19,806 nucleotides of DNA from IMG/VR virus record IMGVR_UViG_2711768067_000013, positions 1 to 19,806 of that record; one strand, given 5' to 3'. A model generated the notes under the pieces. It searched no databases, was not told the origin of the DNA, and saw nothing but the letters and a program-made list of their open reading frames with translations. The DNA comes from a virus (lineage: Duplodnaviria > Heunggongvirae > Uroviricota > Caudoviricetes). This document shows, one piece after another, positions 11,692 to 19,676 of this stretch. The position numbers and the translations under genes were made by a program. The stretch's first letter is position 1; each line of letters begins with the position of its first letter.

Positions 11692-11726
11692 CACTACACA
11701 CAAATCAACACAGAAGGAAAATGAAA

Positions 11727-12278
11727 ATGGCTAATATTGGATACATTAGGGTATCGACTGTGCAACAAAACACAGACCGTCAATTAGCTGGAGTAACTCT
11801 TGATAAAGTCTTTGAAGATAAAGCGTCAGGCAAGAACACTCAGCGCCCACAGTTTGAGGCAATGATGAACTATGTGCGGGAGGGTGACGTGTTACACGTC
11901 CATAGTATTGATCGCCTTTGTCGTAATACAGCCGACCTTCTGGCAACGGTTGAGCAATTAACAGAGCGCGGCGTGTCTGTGCATTTCCATAAAGAAGACT
12001 TTAAGACAGGGAAGAACTCTCCCGCAGGGAATATGATGCTCACAGTGCTTGCAGCAGTGGCACAAATGGAACGTGAAATGATGCTTGAGCGGCAACGTGA
12101 AGGGATCGCCGCAGCTAAGGCCGCTGGGCGTATAGCAAAACGTGGTAATGGAAAAGCAATTGATCGAGCAGGAATTGCTGCCGCTCTCGCGAATGGTGGA
12201 TCAATTCGGAGCGTAGCAAAAGATTTCAGTGTCAGCACACAGACGGTGCAACGTATCAAGAAAGAGCAGGAAGCGTAA
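11727..12278 (+). CDS. Small serine recombinase (resolvase/invertase family, ~183 aa)
   Basis: N-terminus MANIGYIRVSTVQQNTDRQ carries the resolvase catalytic-Ser motif; a C-terminal helix-turn-helix-like region (SIRSVAKDFSVSTQTVQRIKK) follows. The ATG at 11727 is better spaced from the AAGGA than the ATG at 11721. Confidence 0.85.
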   Translation: MANIGYIRVSTVQQNTDRQLAGVTLDKVFEDKASGKNTQRPQFEAMMNYVREGDVLHVHSIDRLCRNTADLLATVEQLTERGVSVHFHKEDFKTGKNSPAGNMMLTVLAAVAQMEREMMLERQREGIAAAKAAGRIAKRGNGKAIDRAGIAAALANGGSIRSVAKDFSVSTQTVQRIKKEQEA

Positions 12279-12996: not shown

Positions 12997-13600
12997 CGTG
13001 TGCCTCTGTATTCATATGAAAATTAACAAGTTACATACTACACAGGGAGACTACGCATAAAACACAATACAAGTAAAGATACATTTTCAAGACAATAGGA
13101 GCCATAAAGCGCCTTTGATGGTTATACCAAAAAATAAGCGCCGTAGGCGTATCCACTAAAAGGGCTTTTTCACAAAAGCTATGAAGTCTTAGCAGTTCTT
13201 CTCTTATCAGGCACCCGTTGTACTCCGGTGGACGAAACCGTGCTAGAGCTTGATTCTTTCCCGATCAAGTTAGGTTTTGAAGAGGTGGGCTTTGATCCAC
13301 TATTGCACTTAAAACTCTTCCCATCATTTAGCCTGTTTATCCTCTGCAACGTCTCACGACGTGTAGCATCATTGGACACCGCGCCAGGTGTGGAACATCT
13401 TGCTAAGAGTTTTGGTAGAAGGTTTAGAGACGGTGGCACGTCTTCCAGCTTCAAAGGAACTTGTTACGAGGTTGAGCCTGGGAACTACTCGCCCATACGT
13501 GTTACACTACCAAAGCCCATAACAACGTATAGGCGTTTGTAAGTGATAACAGAAGATACAATTTCTTAGAGAAGTTAAGCTAAGTTATTGATTTTCTTAA

Positions 13601-13646
13601 TGGTGCCGATAATAGGAGTCGAACCTACGACCTTCGCATTACGAAT
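13601..13646 (-). tRNA. Truncated tRNA-Thr (CGU anticodon) 3' fragment, 46 nt (anticodon loop through T-arm, acceptor 3' strand and CCA); att-site remnant, not a functional gene
   Basis: Reverse complement reads ATTCGTAATGCGAAGGTCGTAGGTTCGACTCCTATTATCGGCACCA, with the GGTTCGA T-loop and CCA end; sequence diverges from tRNA after 13646. As I recall it, this matches the 3' part of E. coli thrW. Confidence 0.7.
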
Positions 13647-13951
13647 TATAAGAATCCGCTTCTAATTCAAAGCATTACCCCATCAACACTGCGCTCACAC
13701 GTCCCACCACATCAAAACATGTAAAGCCTTGCAAGCCATTGCGAGGCCTTATGTGTCTCAGTTTTGTCCCACCTTGTATTACGACTTACATAGCCAATGA
13801 AGATAAACGTGACGACAAACGGCGCAGCAGTCTTCTTTTCCTTCATACTTTCCCCACCCAGCATGCATACCTTTATGCCATAACTGAAGTTTATGTCTGT
13901 TATGAGCGAAAAGCAGACATTACACTAAATTATTTAGGTTTACTTTTATCA

Positions 13952-14824
13952 TTACATTTCTAATGCTTTTTCTCTGCTAATTGATCCTTCACCATTGCAG
14001 GTTCTGCAATCTAATTTTATATTCCTGCAGTCAGGACAAGTAAATTTTTCATAATTAGAAAGATTCACCTTTGCAGCAATATATCTTTTTACGGATCCCA
14101 TTCCATTACAGATCGGACAATCTTCTCCCGCTAAACTGCCTTTTCCATTACATAAAGGGCAAGTTACAGTGGATATCACTTCATTTTCATTTTCATAAAT
14201 AAAATTGTTGAAATTTTGGGCGTTTATTGTGCTTAGTTGAACTTTTTCAATTTTTTTTATGTGATGTTCAAAATACTTTTTAATTGCCTTCTTAAGATCC
14301 TCTTTAGACGATTTCCATTGTTCTGGTGAGATCCTAATCGATTGAAATCCTTCGTTACTAGTTATTACTGCATCACGCTTGTAAGTAGACTTAATTTTAC
14401 TTTCCACATAATGAGCTATGTGGCCATCATACTCGATGCCAATAGCAGCAATCTCAACCAAATCTTGACCAATCCATCTATTTAGTCTAAGGACAAGGTC
14501 TATTGCCCAAGGCTGGGCTTTTGGGTTTATATTGCCAACCTTATACTGAGGCTCGATATAAACAATATGTCCGTTTGGGAATTGACCTTTCAGAGTTATT
14601 CGTCGTGGTGAATTTTGAAAACTATCGATTTCCAATGGACTAAACTGAGATATGAGGCCGGCAATTACCTCTATCTCAGCCTGAGATGTTTTTTCCACTC
14701 CTTGTAAACTAATAAGACCGATAGCTACTTGACGGTTAGTGGCTGGCTCAATCCTTTTAAATAGTTTCTTCTGATTATTACTAAAATTATTTTTGATAAC
14801 TTCAAGTGTTTCATCTAGTTCCAT
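13952..14824 (-). CDS. PD-(D/E)xK-type nuclease-like domain fused to a C-terminal DnaJ-type zinc finger (four CxxCxGxG-like repeats)
   Basis: Track ORF starts at GTG 14833; an ATG lies at 14824. Candidate nuclease motif D...IGIEYDGHIAHY (DUF559/Vsr-like). C-terminus has CPLCNGKGS, CPICNGMGS, CPDCRN and CRTCNGEGS. AT-rich gene. Confidence 0.65.
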   Translation of the reverse strand: MELDETLEVIKNNFSNNQKKLFKRIEPATNRQVAIGLISLQGVEKTSQAEIEVIAGLISQFSPLEIDSFQNSPRRITLKGQFPNGHIVYIEPQYKVGNINPKAQPWAIDLVLRLNRWIGQDLVEIAAIGIEYDGHIAHYVESKIKSTYKRDAVITSNEGFQSIRISPEQWKSSKEDLKKAIKKYFEHHIKKIEKVQLSTINAQNFNNFIYENENEVISTVTCPLCNGKGSLAGEDCPICNGMGSVKRYIAAKVNLSNYEKFTCPDCRNIKLDCRTCNGEGSISREKALEM

Positions 14825-14928
14825 CTCACCCACTCTATAAACTGATTATCCATATAAACTACATTATCATTTTTAACTGCTCAACATAGATTAACATAGC
14901 GCGATGCTAACAGTGTCAACTCCTGGCA

Positions 14929-14950
14929 CAGGGCTGTTGTTGCAGCCCTG
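14929..14950. other. Perfect 8-bp palindrome with 6-nt spacer (CAGGGCTG ttgttg CAGCCCTG) between the recombinase stop and the nuclease-ZnF gene
   Basis: Read directly; no flanking T-tract on either strand, so probably not a simple terminator. Confidence 0.5.
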
Positions 14951-14956
14951 ACAACC

Positions 14957-15559
14957 TTAGACTTCAATCGATTCAGAGATCTCTAACACATCATCTACTT
15001 CAATACCCAGATAACGGACTGTGCTTTCCAGTTTCTTATGGCCCAACAGAAGTTGGATCACCCGAAGATTCTTGGTTTTCTTGTAGATCAGGTAAGGTTT
15101 TGTTCTTCTCATGGAATGAGTGCTGTAAAGCGAATCTTCGAGACCAAGCTTTTCTACCCACCCATGAAAAATTCGGTTGTATTGCCGGGTAGATATGAGC
15201 TGATTAGTTCCGACCAGAAACCGAAACAAGAAGTCTTTACTATGCAAATTGCCAAGCATTATCAATGCAGCAACAGCTTCTCTTGTCCCTTTGGTTATCT
15301 CAAACTGCACAGGGCTACCGGTTTTCTGTTGCAGCACCGTAGCTCTGCTTGAAGCAGAGCTACCATATGCAACATCAGATACTTTGAGTTTGACCAGATC
15401 ACAGCCTCGTAGCTTACTGTCCAGGGCCATATCGAACTGAGCTAAATCGCGCGTTTTATCTTCCAGTTCAAGCCGGATTCGGATCCCCCAGATATGAGAT
15501 ATCTGAAGTGGTCTTTTTTGGCCGATGATACGGTCTTTGTTCCACGGTGACGTGTTCAT
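14957..15559 (-). CDS. Short tyrosine recombinase (~200 aa, catalytic domain only, FimB/FimE-like size)
   Basis: Track ORF starts at TTG 15613; the ATG at 15559 has AGGAGA upstream. Catalytic signatures: LRGCDL (Arg), HSMRRT (His-x-x-Arg), LLGH, and TVRYL (Tyr). No N-terminal arm-binding domain. Confidence 0.8.
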   Translation of the reverse strand: MNTSPWNKDRIIGQKRPLQISHIWGIRIRLELEDKTRDLAQFDMALDSKLRGCDLVKLKVSDVAYGSSASSRATVLQQKTGSPVQFEITKGTREAVAALIMLGNLHSKDFLFRFLVGTNQLISTRQYNRIFHGWVEKLGLEDSLYSTHSMRRTKPYLIYKKTKNLRVIQLLLGHKKLESTVRYLGIEVDDVLEISESIEV

Positions 15560-15595
15560 ACTCAAATCTCCTGCAATGTGGGAGATTTGAGTATG
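15557..15595. promoter_or_regulatory. Perfect 15-bp inverted repeat with 9-bp spacer (CATACTCAAATCTCC tgcaatgtg GGAGATTTGAGTATG) covering the recombinase Shine-Dalgarno and start codon
   Basis: Arms 15557-15571 and 15581-15595 are exact reverse complements. In the minus-strand mRNA the hairpin would sequester GGAG and AUG. Confidence 0.5.
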
Positions 15596-15765
15596 GTTGT
15601 CCCTTATGAGCAAATCGCAGACGTAACATCAAGTTCATAGCTACCCTGGAGCACCTTATTATCCTGTATAACGATAAGTTGGGAAGCCAGTGGCCTCACA
15701 GTGTCCCCAAGATGGTGGTGTCTCTGCACCAAAGATGCGCTAGTTCAAATGTTAGTAAATATAAT

Positions 15766-16677
15766 TTATATGTAATCAGGTAGTGAATTCAAAGCCATCA
15801 CTCTTTCTCTTTCTTTTTCTGTCATTTCTCTCATAACAATTTGAGATAGCGCTAATGTTATCTCCTTTGTTTTATTGAAGGCTTCTTTGGTATATGTTTT
15901 CCTTCCATACTCAAGTTCATTAAATGTCCCCATAATCCATTTGAGATAGAATAATGGGATGGCTAGATCACTTATATCCTGCCATCTCGTAATCGCTTTA
16001 TATTCATTCCAAAAATAATCCTCAAAATGCTTATCACAATCACCTTTACACGCATAATAAACCGCTATCACCTCATTTGGTTTGTCATCGTGTATGATCT
16101 CTGCATTGCACACAATGCCATCATAATTTTCTTCATGATGGTTTTCTATTAAGTCCTTTCCACAACGATCACATTTTATAGGTAAGTACTTATCAAAAAT
16201 CAAATGCTTGGGTTTTATTTTTTTATAGCTCTCAGGAAAGTATCTAAGGAGTAGTTTTGAGTAACCAATTCTGACTAAGTGATTTTCAATTAATTTACCA
16301 TCAAAGAATCGAAAGTCCTTTATTTTTCCATTCTCTTTTAATTGCGTCATTCTTGAATTTAAACCACTACTTGGCAGTGTTGAGTAAAATCCAATAAATC
16401 CGTCGGCATTGAATCCATCAATACGTTCTTGTATATTAATCTCATCCTTTTCTGAAACTGATTTTTTACTTGTTGCATAATGTTTACAGCTAACAAGCCA
16501 ACGAAATTTATATTTATTTAACTGACCTTGCAATTGCTCTGTGATTAAAAGATCTTTACCTCCATCTGCACCTCTATCTGGCGCGGATTCAATATAAAAG
16601 CCAAGTTCTTCAAGAAAATCACGGGCAAATGACTCCCAGGCTTCACCGTCACTATCAATTTCAGTAAAGTTAATCAT
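15766..16677 (-). CDS. Mrr-like (type IV restriction endonuclease catalytic fold) N-terminal domain fused to a Cys/His-rich C-terminal domain (303 aa)
   Basis: ATG at 16677 with GGGAG 9 nt upstream. N-terminal motifs RGADGGKDLLI and WLVSCKHY fit the Mrr_cat pattern. The C-terminus has CDRCGKD, CNAEI and CKGDCDKH. AT-rich gene. Confidence 0.65.
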   Translation of the reverse strand: MINFTEIDSDGEAWESFARDFLEELGFYIESAPDRGADGGKDLLITEQLQGQLNKYKFRWLVSCKHYATSKKSVSEKDEINIQERIDGFNADGFIGFYSTLPSSGLNSRMTQLKENGKIKDFRFFDGKLIENHLVRIGYSKLLLRYFPESYKKIKPKHLIFDKYLPIKCDRCGKDLIENHHEENYDGIVCNAEIIHDDKPNEVIAVYYACKGDCDKHFEDYFWNEYKAITRWQDISDLAIPLFYLKWIMGTFNELEYGRKTYTKEAFNKTKEITLALSQIVMREMTEKERERVMALNSLPDYI

Positions 16678-16925
16678 TTGTTAACTCCCAAGCGTTGAGA
16701 TATTTTTATATCTGTATTGTGGGCTTATTATAAGCGAGTGTAATTATAATATCATACTAACAGACACAACTTCCGCTTCTGGTACATAGCAGACCAGAGA
16801 CACTGGCGTAAAGCCATGGAGGATCGGTGGGAGGAGGTAAAAATCCTCTCATGCAAAAAATACGCAAAATCGATAACAGTTGGAAATCATTCAATACTCG
16901 CACTATCGGAAGTTCACCAGCCAGT

Positions 16926-17054: not shown

Positions 17055-17924
<870 letters not shown>

Positions 17925-17984: not shown

Positions 17985-18546
17985 TCATTTATCTCCGACC
18001 GGAAACTTCTTATACAGTGTCGATATACCAACATCATAGATGATCGCCACCTTCTGGCGAGGAACGCCTGATGCAATTAATCGTCCGGCCTGCTCCCATT
18101 GTTCTGGTGTAAGTTTGGGACGACGTCCACCAATTCGTCCCTGTGCGCGAGCAGCTTCCAGTCCAGCTTTTGTTCGTTCAACAATCAGTTCACGCTCCAT
18201 TTCAGCCAGGGCACCCATCACATGAAAGAAAAAGCGCCCCATTGGGGTACTGGTATCAATTGAATCCGTCAGACTACGAAAGTTGATGCCTCGTTCGCGC
18301 AACTCCTCCACCAGCACGACAAGATGCCGCATACTGCGCCCCCAGTCTGTCCAGCTTCCAGACAACCAGCGTGTCTCCTGCCGATAGTGTCCTGAGCAGC
18401 TTTTTCAGCCCCGGTCTGTCGGACTTGGTGCCACTGATTTTATCCTCAAAAATCCGCTCACATCCCGCACAGTTCAGTGCATTGCGTTGCAAATCGGTGT
18501 TCTGGTCATTTGTTGACACGCGTACATAGCCAATAAGCATGATCAT
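17985..18546 (-). pseudogene. pin: Pin/Gin/Hin-family serine DNA invertase, disrupted by a +1 frameshift in a C5 run (18339-18343, plus strand)
   Basis: N-terminal ORF (18274-18546) reads MLIGYVRVSTNDQNTDLQ…WKLDRLG, then goes out of frame. C-terminal ORF (17985-18365) reads …GRSMRHLVVLVEELRERGINFRSLTDSIDTSTPMGRFFFHVMGALAEMERE…. Removing one G from the GGGGG run restores WKLDRLGRSMRHL. May be a sequencing error. Confidence 0.7.
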
Positions 18547-18567: not shown

Positions 18568-19074
18568 ATGATGCCAGTTAGCCGTTATCTCTGCATTTTC
18601 ATAAACGTTGGTTTGGGAGAAGGTTCGGCGTTACCCGTTGGTGTGCCTGTTCCGTGGCCTGCAGCCACTCCGCCAACAGGCTGGCTGAAATGCAATGGTG
18701 CGGCTTTTTCTGCTGAAGAATACCCAGAACTGGCAAAGGCTTACCCGACAAATAAATTGCCTGATTTACGTGGTGAGTTTATGCGTGGCTGGGATGATGG
18801 AAGAGGCGTTGATAGTGGCAGGGGGATTCTCACTGCGCAATCTCATGGTATGCCGTCTATTTCAGGAACGTTTAATGGTCTTTTTGCTGTTAAACAAACA
18901 AATGGTTTAGGTGGTGTTTCTGTAGCAAAAAGTAAAAATGCTGAAACTTTATCTACTTCATCTGGATCAGGTTCCGTGTTTGATTACACGTTTAATGTCA
19001 GCGGTTCGACTCCGGTATCACCAGAACTTCGTCCGCGTAATATTGCATTTAACTATATCGTGAGGGCCGCATAA
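18568..19074 (+). CDS. Tail-fibre protein C-terminal (variable, receptor-binding) segment; probably a silent cassette lacking its constant 5' part in this orientation
   Basis: Translation PVGVPVPWPAATPPTGWLKCNGAAFSAEEYPELAKAYPTNKLPDLRGEFMRGWDDGRGVDSGRG is typical of tail-fibre C-termini. The first ~15 codons read through the crossover site and are probably not native N-terminus. Confidence 0.65.
   Translation: MMPVSRYLCIFINVGLGEGSALPVGVPVPWPAATPPTGWLKCNGAAFSAEEYPELAKAYPTNKLPDLRGEFMRGWDDGRGVDSGRGILTAQSHGMPSISGTFNGLFAVKQTNGLGGVSVAKSKNAETLSTSSGSGSVFDYTFNVSGSTPVSPELRPRNIAFNYIVRAA
18597..18622. other. hix/gix/pix-like 26-bp crossover site for the DNA invertase
   Basis: ttttcataaacgttggtttgggagaa; reverse complement TTCTCCCAAACCAACGTTTATGAAAA has imperfect dyad symmetry resembling invertase sites. 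Lies 50 bp upstream of pin, at the start of the tail-fibre cassette. Confidence 0.5.
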
Positions 19075-19676
19075 TGAATAATGCAGAATTAAATAGTGAA
19101 TTGATTGCTACTGCGGCAGGGAATATTACCGTTTATAACTATGATTGTGAAACACGAGAATATATTTCCACATCAACTGAATATCTTGCTGTGGGTGTCG
19201 GTATCCCGGCATGTTCCTGTCTGGATACACCAGGTATACATAAGGCGGGTTATGCAATATGCCGCTCTGTGGATTTAAATTCATGGGAATATGTGCCAGA
19301 CCATCGAGGTGAAATTGTCTATAGCACCGAAACGGGAGATACCAAAGAAATCACAGTGCCAGGCGACTATCCCGAAAATACAACCACTATCGCCCCGTTA
19401 ACGCCATACGATAAATGGGATGGTGAGAAATGGGTGACCGATATTGAGGCACAGCATAGCGCCGCAGTAGACGCGGCAGAAGCGCATCGCCAATCGCGGA
19501 TTGATGCTGCAATGGCTTCCATCAGTCTGATTCAGCTGAAATTGCAGGCCGGACGTAAACTGACGCAGGCAGAAACAACCCGGCTTAACGCTGTGCTGGA
19601 TTACATTGACGCGGTGGTGGCAACAGATACCAGCACCGCGCCGGATGTCATCTGGCCTGAACTACCGGAGGCGTAG
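19074..19676 (+). CDS. tfa: Tail-fibre assembly protein (Tfa/U-like)
   Basis: ATG overlaps the upstream stop (TAATG). C-terminus …TDTSTAPDVIWPELPEA is typical of Tfa chaperones. Confidence 0.8.
   Translation: MNNAELNSELIATAAGNITVYNYDCETREYISTSTEYLAVGVGIPACSCLDTPGIHKAGYAICRSVDLNSWEYVPDHRGEIVYSTETGDTKEITVPGDYPENTTTIAPLTPYDKWDGEKWVTDIEAQHSAAVDAAEAHRQSRIDAAMASISLIQLKLQAGRKLTQAETTRLNAVLDYIDAVVATDTSTAPDVIWPELPEA

Follow-up and report, generated by a model that had tools for sequence, protein, structure and literature searches.

A perfect inverted repeat enclosing the ribosome-binding motif and start codon of a small tyrosine recombinase gene: a probable translational occluder within a mobile module

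What is the role of a perfect inverted repeat that covers the very start of a tyrosine recombinase gene? The question is raised by a stretch of 19,806 nucleotides of viral DNA (Caudoviricetes, IMG/VR record IMGVR_UViG_2711768067_000013), referred to here as the window. Two arms, CATACTCAAATCTCC (15557-15571) and GGAGATTTGAGTATG (15581-15595), are 100% complementary and lie 9 nt apart, which bears out the perfect 15-9-15 repeat described in the earlier note on this DNA. That note had also placed the ribosome-binding site and the start codon of the recombinase inside the repeat, and both GGAG and ATG are indeed found in its 3′ arm. The gene lies on the minus strand, so that in the sense of its mRNA the 5′ arm runs from 15595 to 15581 and the 3′ arm from 15571 to 15557. 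The parts of the hairpin are the following:

15581-15595, minus strand: hairpin 5′ arm, CAUACUCAAAUCUCC; CUCC (15584-15581) complements the ribosome-binding motif, and the conserved hexamer CATACT occupies 15595-15590
15572-15580, minus strand: hairpin loop of 9 nt, CACAUUGCA in mRNA sense
15557-15571, minus strand: hairpin 3′ arm, GGAGAUUUGAGUAUG; starts with GGAG (15571-15568) and ends with AUG (15559-15557)

No other perfect inverted repeat of at least 13 nt is present in the window. The claim that such an element is far beyond chance also held: a perfect 15-nt inverted repeat with a loop of 3-20 nt is expected 5e-4 times per window, and one of 340 mononucleotide shuffles reached at least 15 nt, while in one set of 300 shuffles none did and the maximum was 12.

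The gene that begins in the repeat is short:

14957-15559, minus strand: tyrosine recombinase gene, 603-nt CDS, 200 aa (Pfam PF00589, PGAP and family profile)

An identical 603-nt CDS is annotated by PGAP in identical E. coli loci, and the protein matches PF00589 (Phage_integrase) with 55.8 bits against a cut-off of 27.1. The family profile aligns continuously, and solely, to the catalytic domain of XerD (residues 131-278). All six catalytic residues (R51, K79, H148, R151, H174 and Y183) are invariant in the family alignment, and they align to R148, K172, H244, R247, H270 and Y279 of XerD. The protein is apparently an active tyrosine recombinase without a core-binding domain. A PDB search with the single sequence returned nothing, Xer proteins being reached only by the family profile. 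The models for XerC (40.5 bits, cut-off 335), XerD (23.5 bits, cut-off 330), the XerA/integron integrase (NF040815; 45 bits, cut-off 220) and the FimB/FimE type (NCBIfam PRK09871; 15.8 bits, cut-off 222) all scored below their thresholds, and NCBIfam, PHROGs and PADLOC gave no specific name for it. Among the 8000 candidate homologue clusters that were scored, 7997 were found at E <= 1e-10, with generic source names throughout; they range over Enterobacteria, Pseudomonas, Burkholderiales, Alteromonadales and others at 57-96% identity. Judged by sequence similarity, the recombinase belongs to a very large unnamed family. An in-frame TTG is present 18 codons upstream of the ATG (15611-15613, minus strand), with the frame open through the hairpin to give a 218-aa ORF; most relatives carry a C at this place (TCG), so the extension is not conserved.

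In the predicted fold both GGAG and AUG are wholly paired, and for the hairpin by itself a free energy of -22.5 kcal/mol is predicted (z = -8.5 relative to shuffles). A reading as terminator was rejected, as it is not followed by a U-run. We consider it probable that the inverted repeat acts in the recombinase mRNA as a translational occluder. The 5′ arm, carrying the complement of the ribosome-binding motif, would pair with the arm carrying GGAG and AUG into a 15-bp stem of about -22 kcal/mol; this stem would block binding of the 30S ribosome, and the recombinase would be made only at a very low level, a lowering of translation that we infer from the features of the leader. The modelled stability should be enough for a strong block of initiation. 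Such a lock is expected to matter most for transcripts reading in from neighbours, because the module that carries the gene lands beside unrelated genes.

The comparison of relatives argues for this reading. Among 88 distinct leaders from homologous loci (57-100% protein identity), the 82 with a recognisable ribosome-binding motif were scored, and the helix is clearly kept across these orthologous loci. In 74 of the 82, the minimum-energy fold has the motif in a helix whose other strand lies upstream. The motif is fully paired upstream in 56/82 leaders (68%) versus 64/354 controls from the same loci, and pairing of the motif is thus not rare in controls (18%); pairing of both motif and AUG is found in 52% of leaders versus 9% of controls. 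The helices of relatives have a median of 13 bp, loops of 3-21 nt and a median energy of -11.8 kcal/mol. Enteric relatives often have perfect 15-nt arms despite a divergence of 5-10% in the rest of the module, and the Providencia-type arms, CATAATTAAATCTC/GAGATTTAATTATG, differ by two compensatory pair changes. Distant relatives carry different arms altogether (GTCCTCC/GGAGGAC, TTGAACTCC/GGAGTTCAA, TCAGACTCC/GGAGTCTGA and ACACTTCTCCCG/CGGGAGAAGTGT), every pair with the ribosome-binding motif in the 3′ arm and its complement in the 5′ arm. When the 15-pair helix was laid over an alignment of 22 enteric and gamma sequences, 90.7% of the cells were paired, compared with 26-44% when the partners were slid by 1-3 columns, and at four pairs both partners had changed, which was seen in 11 cells. 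From the MAFFT alignment of this clade, RNAalifold retained the upper helix only, that is, the motif and its complement; either the full 15-bp stem is clade-specific or it was lost from this consensus through misalignment. Predicted occlusion of the ribosome-binding motif is the universal feature; the enteric clade shows the strongest continuation of the stem through the AUG.

The earlier note had offered two readings of the repeat, an mRNA hairpin that hides GGAG and AUG on the one hand and a recombination core site or dimeric operator on the other. The first is supported by the comparative evidence, with a helix conserved despite differing arms, loops and stems, and by the predicted stability, whereas the second finds no support, as set out below. 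Translational occlusion is favoured over a protein-binding or crossover site because the motif and its complement are the sole invariant part of the element, and RNA pairing is favoured because loop and stem lengths vary and no regulator gene accompanies it. The antisense strand folds at least as well as the sense strand (-26.9 versus -22.5 kcal/mol), and wobble pairs are without strand bias, with 12 sense G-U cells against 13 antisense-equivalent A-C cells. Because neither the antisense fold nor the wobble cells discriminate, it is solely the content of the stem that points to the strand on which it acts.

A variant of the element was observed in which the 9-nt spacer is inverted (“flop”, TGCAATGTG in gene sense), giving an 18-bp stem (L011:2965-3003 and L153:5020-5058). 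Both copies are decayed: L011 has two in-frame stops, and in E. coli AR435 (L153) the gene is internally deleted. The L153-type inverted spacer was seen in E. coli AR435 and also in no fewer than 45 genomes related to it.

A perfect 15-bp duplex, which lengthens to 18-19 bp when the antisense strand folds or the spacer is inverted, could also serve as an RNase III substrate, or as a pairing site for a cis-antisense RNA in the manner of IS10 RNA-OUT or IS200 art200; IS200 does join a stem-loop with an antisense RNA (PMC4513863). We regard this as unlikely. The stems of most relatives, at 7-13 bp with interior loops, are too short for RNase III, and no promoter-like site is directed antisense across the leader. 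Rfam gave no family for the leader at gathering thresholds, the only match being a meaningless one to a miRNA (E = 2.8).

Other readings of the repeat have to be weighed against the element in which it travels. It is located within a segment of ~690 bp that comprises the gene and its leader (window ~14920-15611) and is present in 909/5426 complete E. coli genomes at 90-95% identity, on chromosomes as well as plasmids, in up to three copies per genome and with unrelated flanks. A preference of this module for co-directional upstream genes was rejected, the nearest gene upstream of the recombinase being co-directional in 41 contexts and opposite in 43. At its edges the following features were found:

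15600-15621, minus strand: degenerate A-type site on the 5′ side of the gene, at the upstream edge of the module, TCTGCG-AT-TTGCTC-AT-AAGGGA (consensus TCCGCT-nn-TCGCTC-An-AAGGGA)
14916-14929, minus strand: degenerate B-type half-site 3′ of the gene, at the downstream edge of the module, GTGCCA-GG-AGTTGA (consensus GTGCCA-nn-AGCGGA)
14929-14950, minus strand: stem-loop just 3′ of the recombinase stop codon, CAGGGCUG-CAACAA-CAGCCCUG, also given as CAGGGCTG-CAACAA-CAGCCCTG

The stem-loop after the stop codon is kept in all enteric relatives and adjoins the B-type site. It was not flagged by a terminator search on the gene strand, and it is not a typical terminator because no T-run (U-run in the RNA) follows it.

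The A-type and B-type sites are palindromes of 22 bp with the form TCCGCT-nn-(TCGCTC or GTGCCA)-nn-AGCGGA, which flank the recombinase and cargo genes and differ in their centres (TCGCTC in A, GTGCCA in B). In aligned enteric loci inverted repeats form the ends of the module, upstream AAYG-TCCGCT-nn-TCGCTC-AT-AAGGGAC and downstream GTGCCA-nn-AGCGGA-CRTT. The sites occur singly or as A+B doublets of 64 bp with a fixed offset of 40-42 bp. With at most one arm mismatch, 34 sites were counted in 255 kb of enteric loci against ~0.1 in shuffles; of these, the centre is of type A or B in 33, and 30 point in the same direction as the recombinase gene. An origin of the A+B doublets as deletion derivatives of the module was considered and dropped, as their inner 20 nt are dissimilar to the module interior. 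Relatives in Pseudomonas are flanked by GTCCGCT-TC-TGGCCG-GT-TAGCGAC and its inverse, so the arm sequence is conserved together with the protein. The sites that bound the cargo of the window, and further palindromes in relatives, are as follows:

16772-16793, minus strand: B-type site bounding the cargo block, TCTGCT-AT-GTACCA-GA-AGCGGA; homology with ~140 E. coli genomes ends here
13896-13917, minus strand: A-type site at the other boundary of the cargo block, TCTGCT-TT-TCGCTC-AT-AACAGA; homology with ~140 genomes ends here
L010:2245-2310, L012:2278-2345, L088:956-1020 and L093:6258-6322: further palindrome sites in related loci

Breakpoints of homology between related genomes fall at these 22-bp palindromes, mapping to the site centre or arm, and never at the 15-9-15 repeat; for instance, L088 and L114 share 97% identity to the right of an A-site centre and bear no relation to its left. 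From this association, the A and B palindromes are likely to be the sites of the recombinase. They are favoured as core sites because their geometry fits tyrosine recombinases, unlike that of the 15-9-15 repeat. A B-type half-site was also noted in the minus-strand region 13600-13676, AGAAGCGGA (~13655-13663), followed by an apparent tRNA 3′ end, GGTCGTAGGTTCGACTCCTATTATCGGCACCA; this is probably the remnant of an old attachment site, and ARAGORN found no whole tRNA gene in the window.

With these sites at hand, the DNA-binding readings can be judged. Autoregulation at element ends is common in transposable elements, and a palindrome that lies over the gene start and directly adjoins an A-type site could be the operator at which a dimeric protein, be it the recombinase itself or a repressor of host or element, represses transcription of the recombinase. 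Yet no neighbouring regulator gene is conserved, the flanks being unrelated between loci; the arms are unlike the GTCCGCT arms that travel with the recombinase; the spacing of the half-sites is not conserved; and the sole invariant part, the motif with its complement, is one that an operator has no reason to need. The dimeric operator proposed in the earlier note is therefore a quite doubtful candidate.

It is still harder to uphold the other DNA reading proposed there, in which the repeat would be a recombination core site, with monomers bound on 15-bp arms, exchange within a 9-bp spacer and a second copy as partner for inversion or excision. The repeat is symmetric and adjoins a recombinase gene, and its spacer is seen inverted in two lineages, although both of these copies are pseudogenes or remnants. 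However, a spacer of 9 bp is outside the usual 6-8 bp and in relatives the loop varies from 3 to 21 nt, the arms of proteins that are ~60% identical share nothing beyond the CTCC/GGAG core, and a search of the window at up to 3 mismatches found no further copy of the arm. Moreover, the conserved module runs past the repeat, so homology does not break there, and better candidates exist in the 22-bp palindromes that flank the gene in both enterics and Pseudomonas at the breakpoints of homology. We consider a core site very improbable. A functionless palindrome, perhaps a by-product of template switching, is hardly credible, for although the inverted spacer shows that palindrome-driven DNA events take place here, the arms stay perfect while the remaining module diverges by 5-10%, compensatory double changes are present and distant relatives have an equivalent helix with unrelated arms.

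A refinement of the occlusion reading concerns the start of the module's own transcript. A hexamer of the form nAnnnT stands exactly 7 nt before the CC of the motif complement in 68/82 leaders, whereas shuffles gave a mean of 24 and a maximum of 34. It starts at -36 or -35 from the ATG, occurs as CATACT, CATAAT, CATCCT, CAAACT or CACACT, and retains the two most important positions of a -10 element. In the window, CATACT makes up the first six bases of the 5′ arm. The hexamer is present also in lineages that are unable to pair it with the start region; its CAT part is also accounted for, in part, by pairing with the AUG. If it served as a weak -10, the module's own transcript would start at ~15583-15581, at the end of the 5′ arm; such a transcript, without that arm, would escape the hairpin, and only transcripts from outside would be locked. 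We infer an internal start and escape of this kind tentatively, as a possibility that falls well short of probable. In IS10 and IS50, fold-back pairing silences read-through transcripts: a stretch that precedes the element's own start of transcription pairs with the start of translation, and transcripts reading through remain untranslated. This fold-back inhibition, reportedly described by Davis, Simons & Kleckner in 1985 and by Krebs & Reznikoff in 1986, is said to give “protection from outside activation”. A -10-like hexamer 7 nt before the end of the 5′ arm would yield the same geometry here, yet consensus promoter scans found no canonical sigma-70 promoter in the leaders of the window, L100 and L002, and the enzyme and the type of element are other than those of IS10 and IS50.

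The likeness to IS200 concerns the hairpin itself. Like IS200, the module is a mobile unit of ~700 bp with a single gene, whose leader carries an inverted repeat that pairs the ribosome-binding motif. The leader stem-loop of IS200 tnpA was shown to sequester this motif and block 30S binding, repressing translation experimentally and limiting transposition (PMC4513863). The enzymes differ, being a HUH transposase in IS200 and a tyrosine recombinase here, and the IS200 stem is longer, imperfect and works together with an antisense RNA and Hfq, whereas in the present leader the predicted stem encloses the AUG as well. Going by such precedents, it is established that mobile elements limit their own recombinase by sequestering the ribosome-binding motif in a leader stem-loop, and by analogy the hairpin would work like the leader structures of IS200 and IS10 and belong to that known type of control.

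In the window, the recombinase gene shares its block, which is bounded by the B site (16772-16793) and the A site (13896-13917), with cargo genes for an Mrr-like endonuclease and a zinc-finger/nuclease-like protein, and a gene that matches a defence model lies beyond the B site:

15766-16677, minus strand: cargo gene for an Mrr-like restriction endonuclease, upstream of and co-directional with the recombinase gene (Pfam Mrr_cat, PGAP)
13952-14833, minus strand: cargo gene for a zinc-finger and nuclease-like protein, downstream of the recombinase gene (partial PADLOC PDC-M01B match)
17100-17924, plus strand: gene for a GIY-YIG protein (PADLOC PD-T4-3, E = 3e-140)

In ~140 other E. coli genomes different cargo occupies the place of the block, and at the sites the sequences become identical again. 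Among the replacements seen in other genomes are an AAA ATPase (of the TrlF family in one genome) and a type II restriction-modification system. Five other genomes have a 91% identical copy of the Mrr-like endonuclease cassette, and the B site is where this copy stops. The region as a whole is a hotspot of defence genes.

This arrangement is reminiscent of integrons, in which a tyrosine recombinase goes with arrays of cargo separated by composite palindromic sites. A tyrosine recombinase and arrayed cargo are found here too, A and B sites 40-42 bp apart may be comparable to the paired “simple sites” of a 59-base element, defence genes serve as cargo and AAC...GTT flanks are present. There are differences as well. 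An integron IntI has ~320 aa with a core-binding domain, and a specific insertion in the catalytic domain is a feature of integron integrases (PMC8138268), whereas the present recombinase has 200 aa and neither the domain nor the insertion. The A+B doublets do not fit the attC consensus RYYYAAC/GTTRRRY, breakpoints lie at the site centre or arm rather than at G|TT, and the recombinase gene is located within the array, between an A and a B site, with no attI or Pc identified. As in the pdif modules of Acinetobacter, cargo is bounded by short palindromic recombinase sites of alternating type or orientation and is exchanged between replicons; but pdif modules use the host XerC/XerD and dif-like sequences, while here the sites travel with a dedicated small recombinase, and their sequences are unrelated to dif. 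In size the enzyme resembles the FimB/FimE invertases, which have ~200 aa and consist of essentially the catalytic domain only, although its score with PRK09871 is far below the cut-off and no invertible promoter segment was identified.

Our search of the literature, in a limited library, found no description of this recombinase family or of its sites, and the cassette-exchange system around the hairpin is apparently undescribed. Perhaps, and we would put this at somewhat below even, the hairpin is the expression lock of a widespread cassette-exchange system in which a 200-aa recombinase acts between 22-bp sites with GTCCGCT/AGCGGAC arms. In Enterobacteria, Pseudomonas and other Proteobacteria, such sites would bound cargo on prophages, islands and plasmids. 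This cargo would in many cases consist of genes for defence against phages, and it would be swapped much as in integrons or pdif modules, with different machinery. Taken alone, the hairpin would add a further example of a mobile element that holds down its own recombinase, helpful for annotation and unsurprising. As a marker it is fixed in a ~690-bp module that roughly every sixth complete E. coli genome carries and that is represented by thousands of protein clusters across Proteobacteria. If the recombinase does act at the A and B sites, this would be a new route for assembling and shuffling defence islands, and the hairpin would be the point where that activity is switched on or kept silent.

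Other recombinase genes are present in the window. The same island encodes a small serine recombinase of the resolvase/invertase type (185 aa; 11721-12278, plus strand), and small serine recombinase genes serve as markers of defence loci (PMC13552941). A Pin-like DNA invertase is split into two ORFs by an apparent frameshift (17985-18546, minus strand, and 18568-19676, plus strand) and adjoins genes for a tail fibre and tail-fibre assembly, forming an e14-like invertible tail-fibre region. Near the other end of the window, a large integrase ORF (612-1976) has its listed start, TTG at 612, overlapped by an imperfect 23-nt inverted repeat (606-658) with a 7-nt spacer and 78% complementarity; it is the second recombinase gene in the window whose 5′ end carries an inverted repeat.
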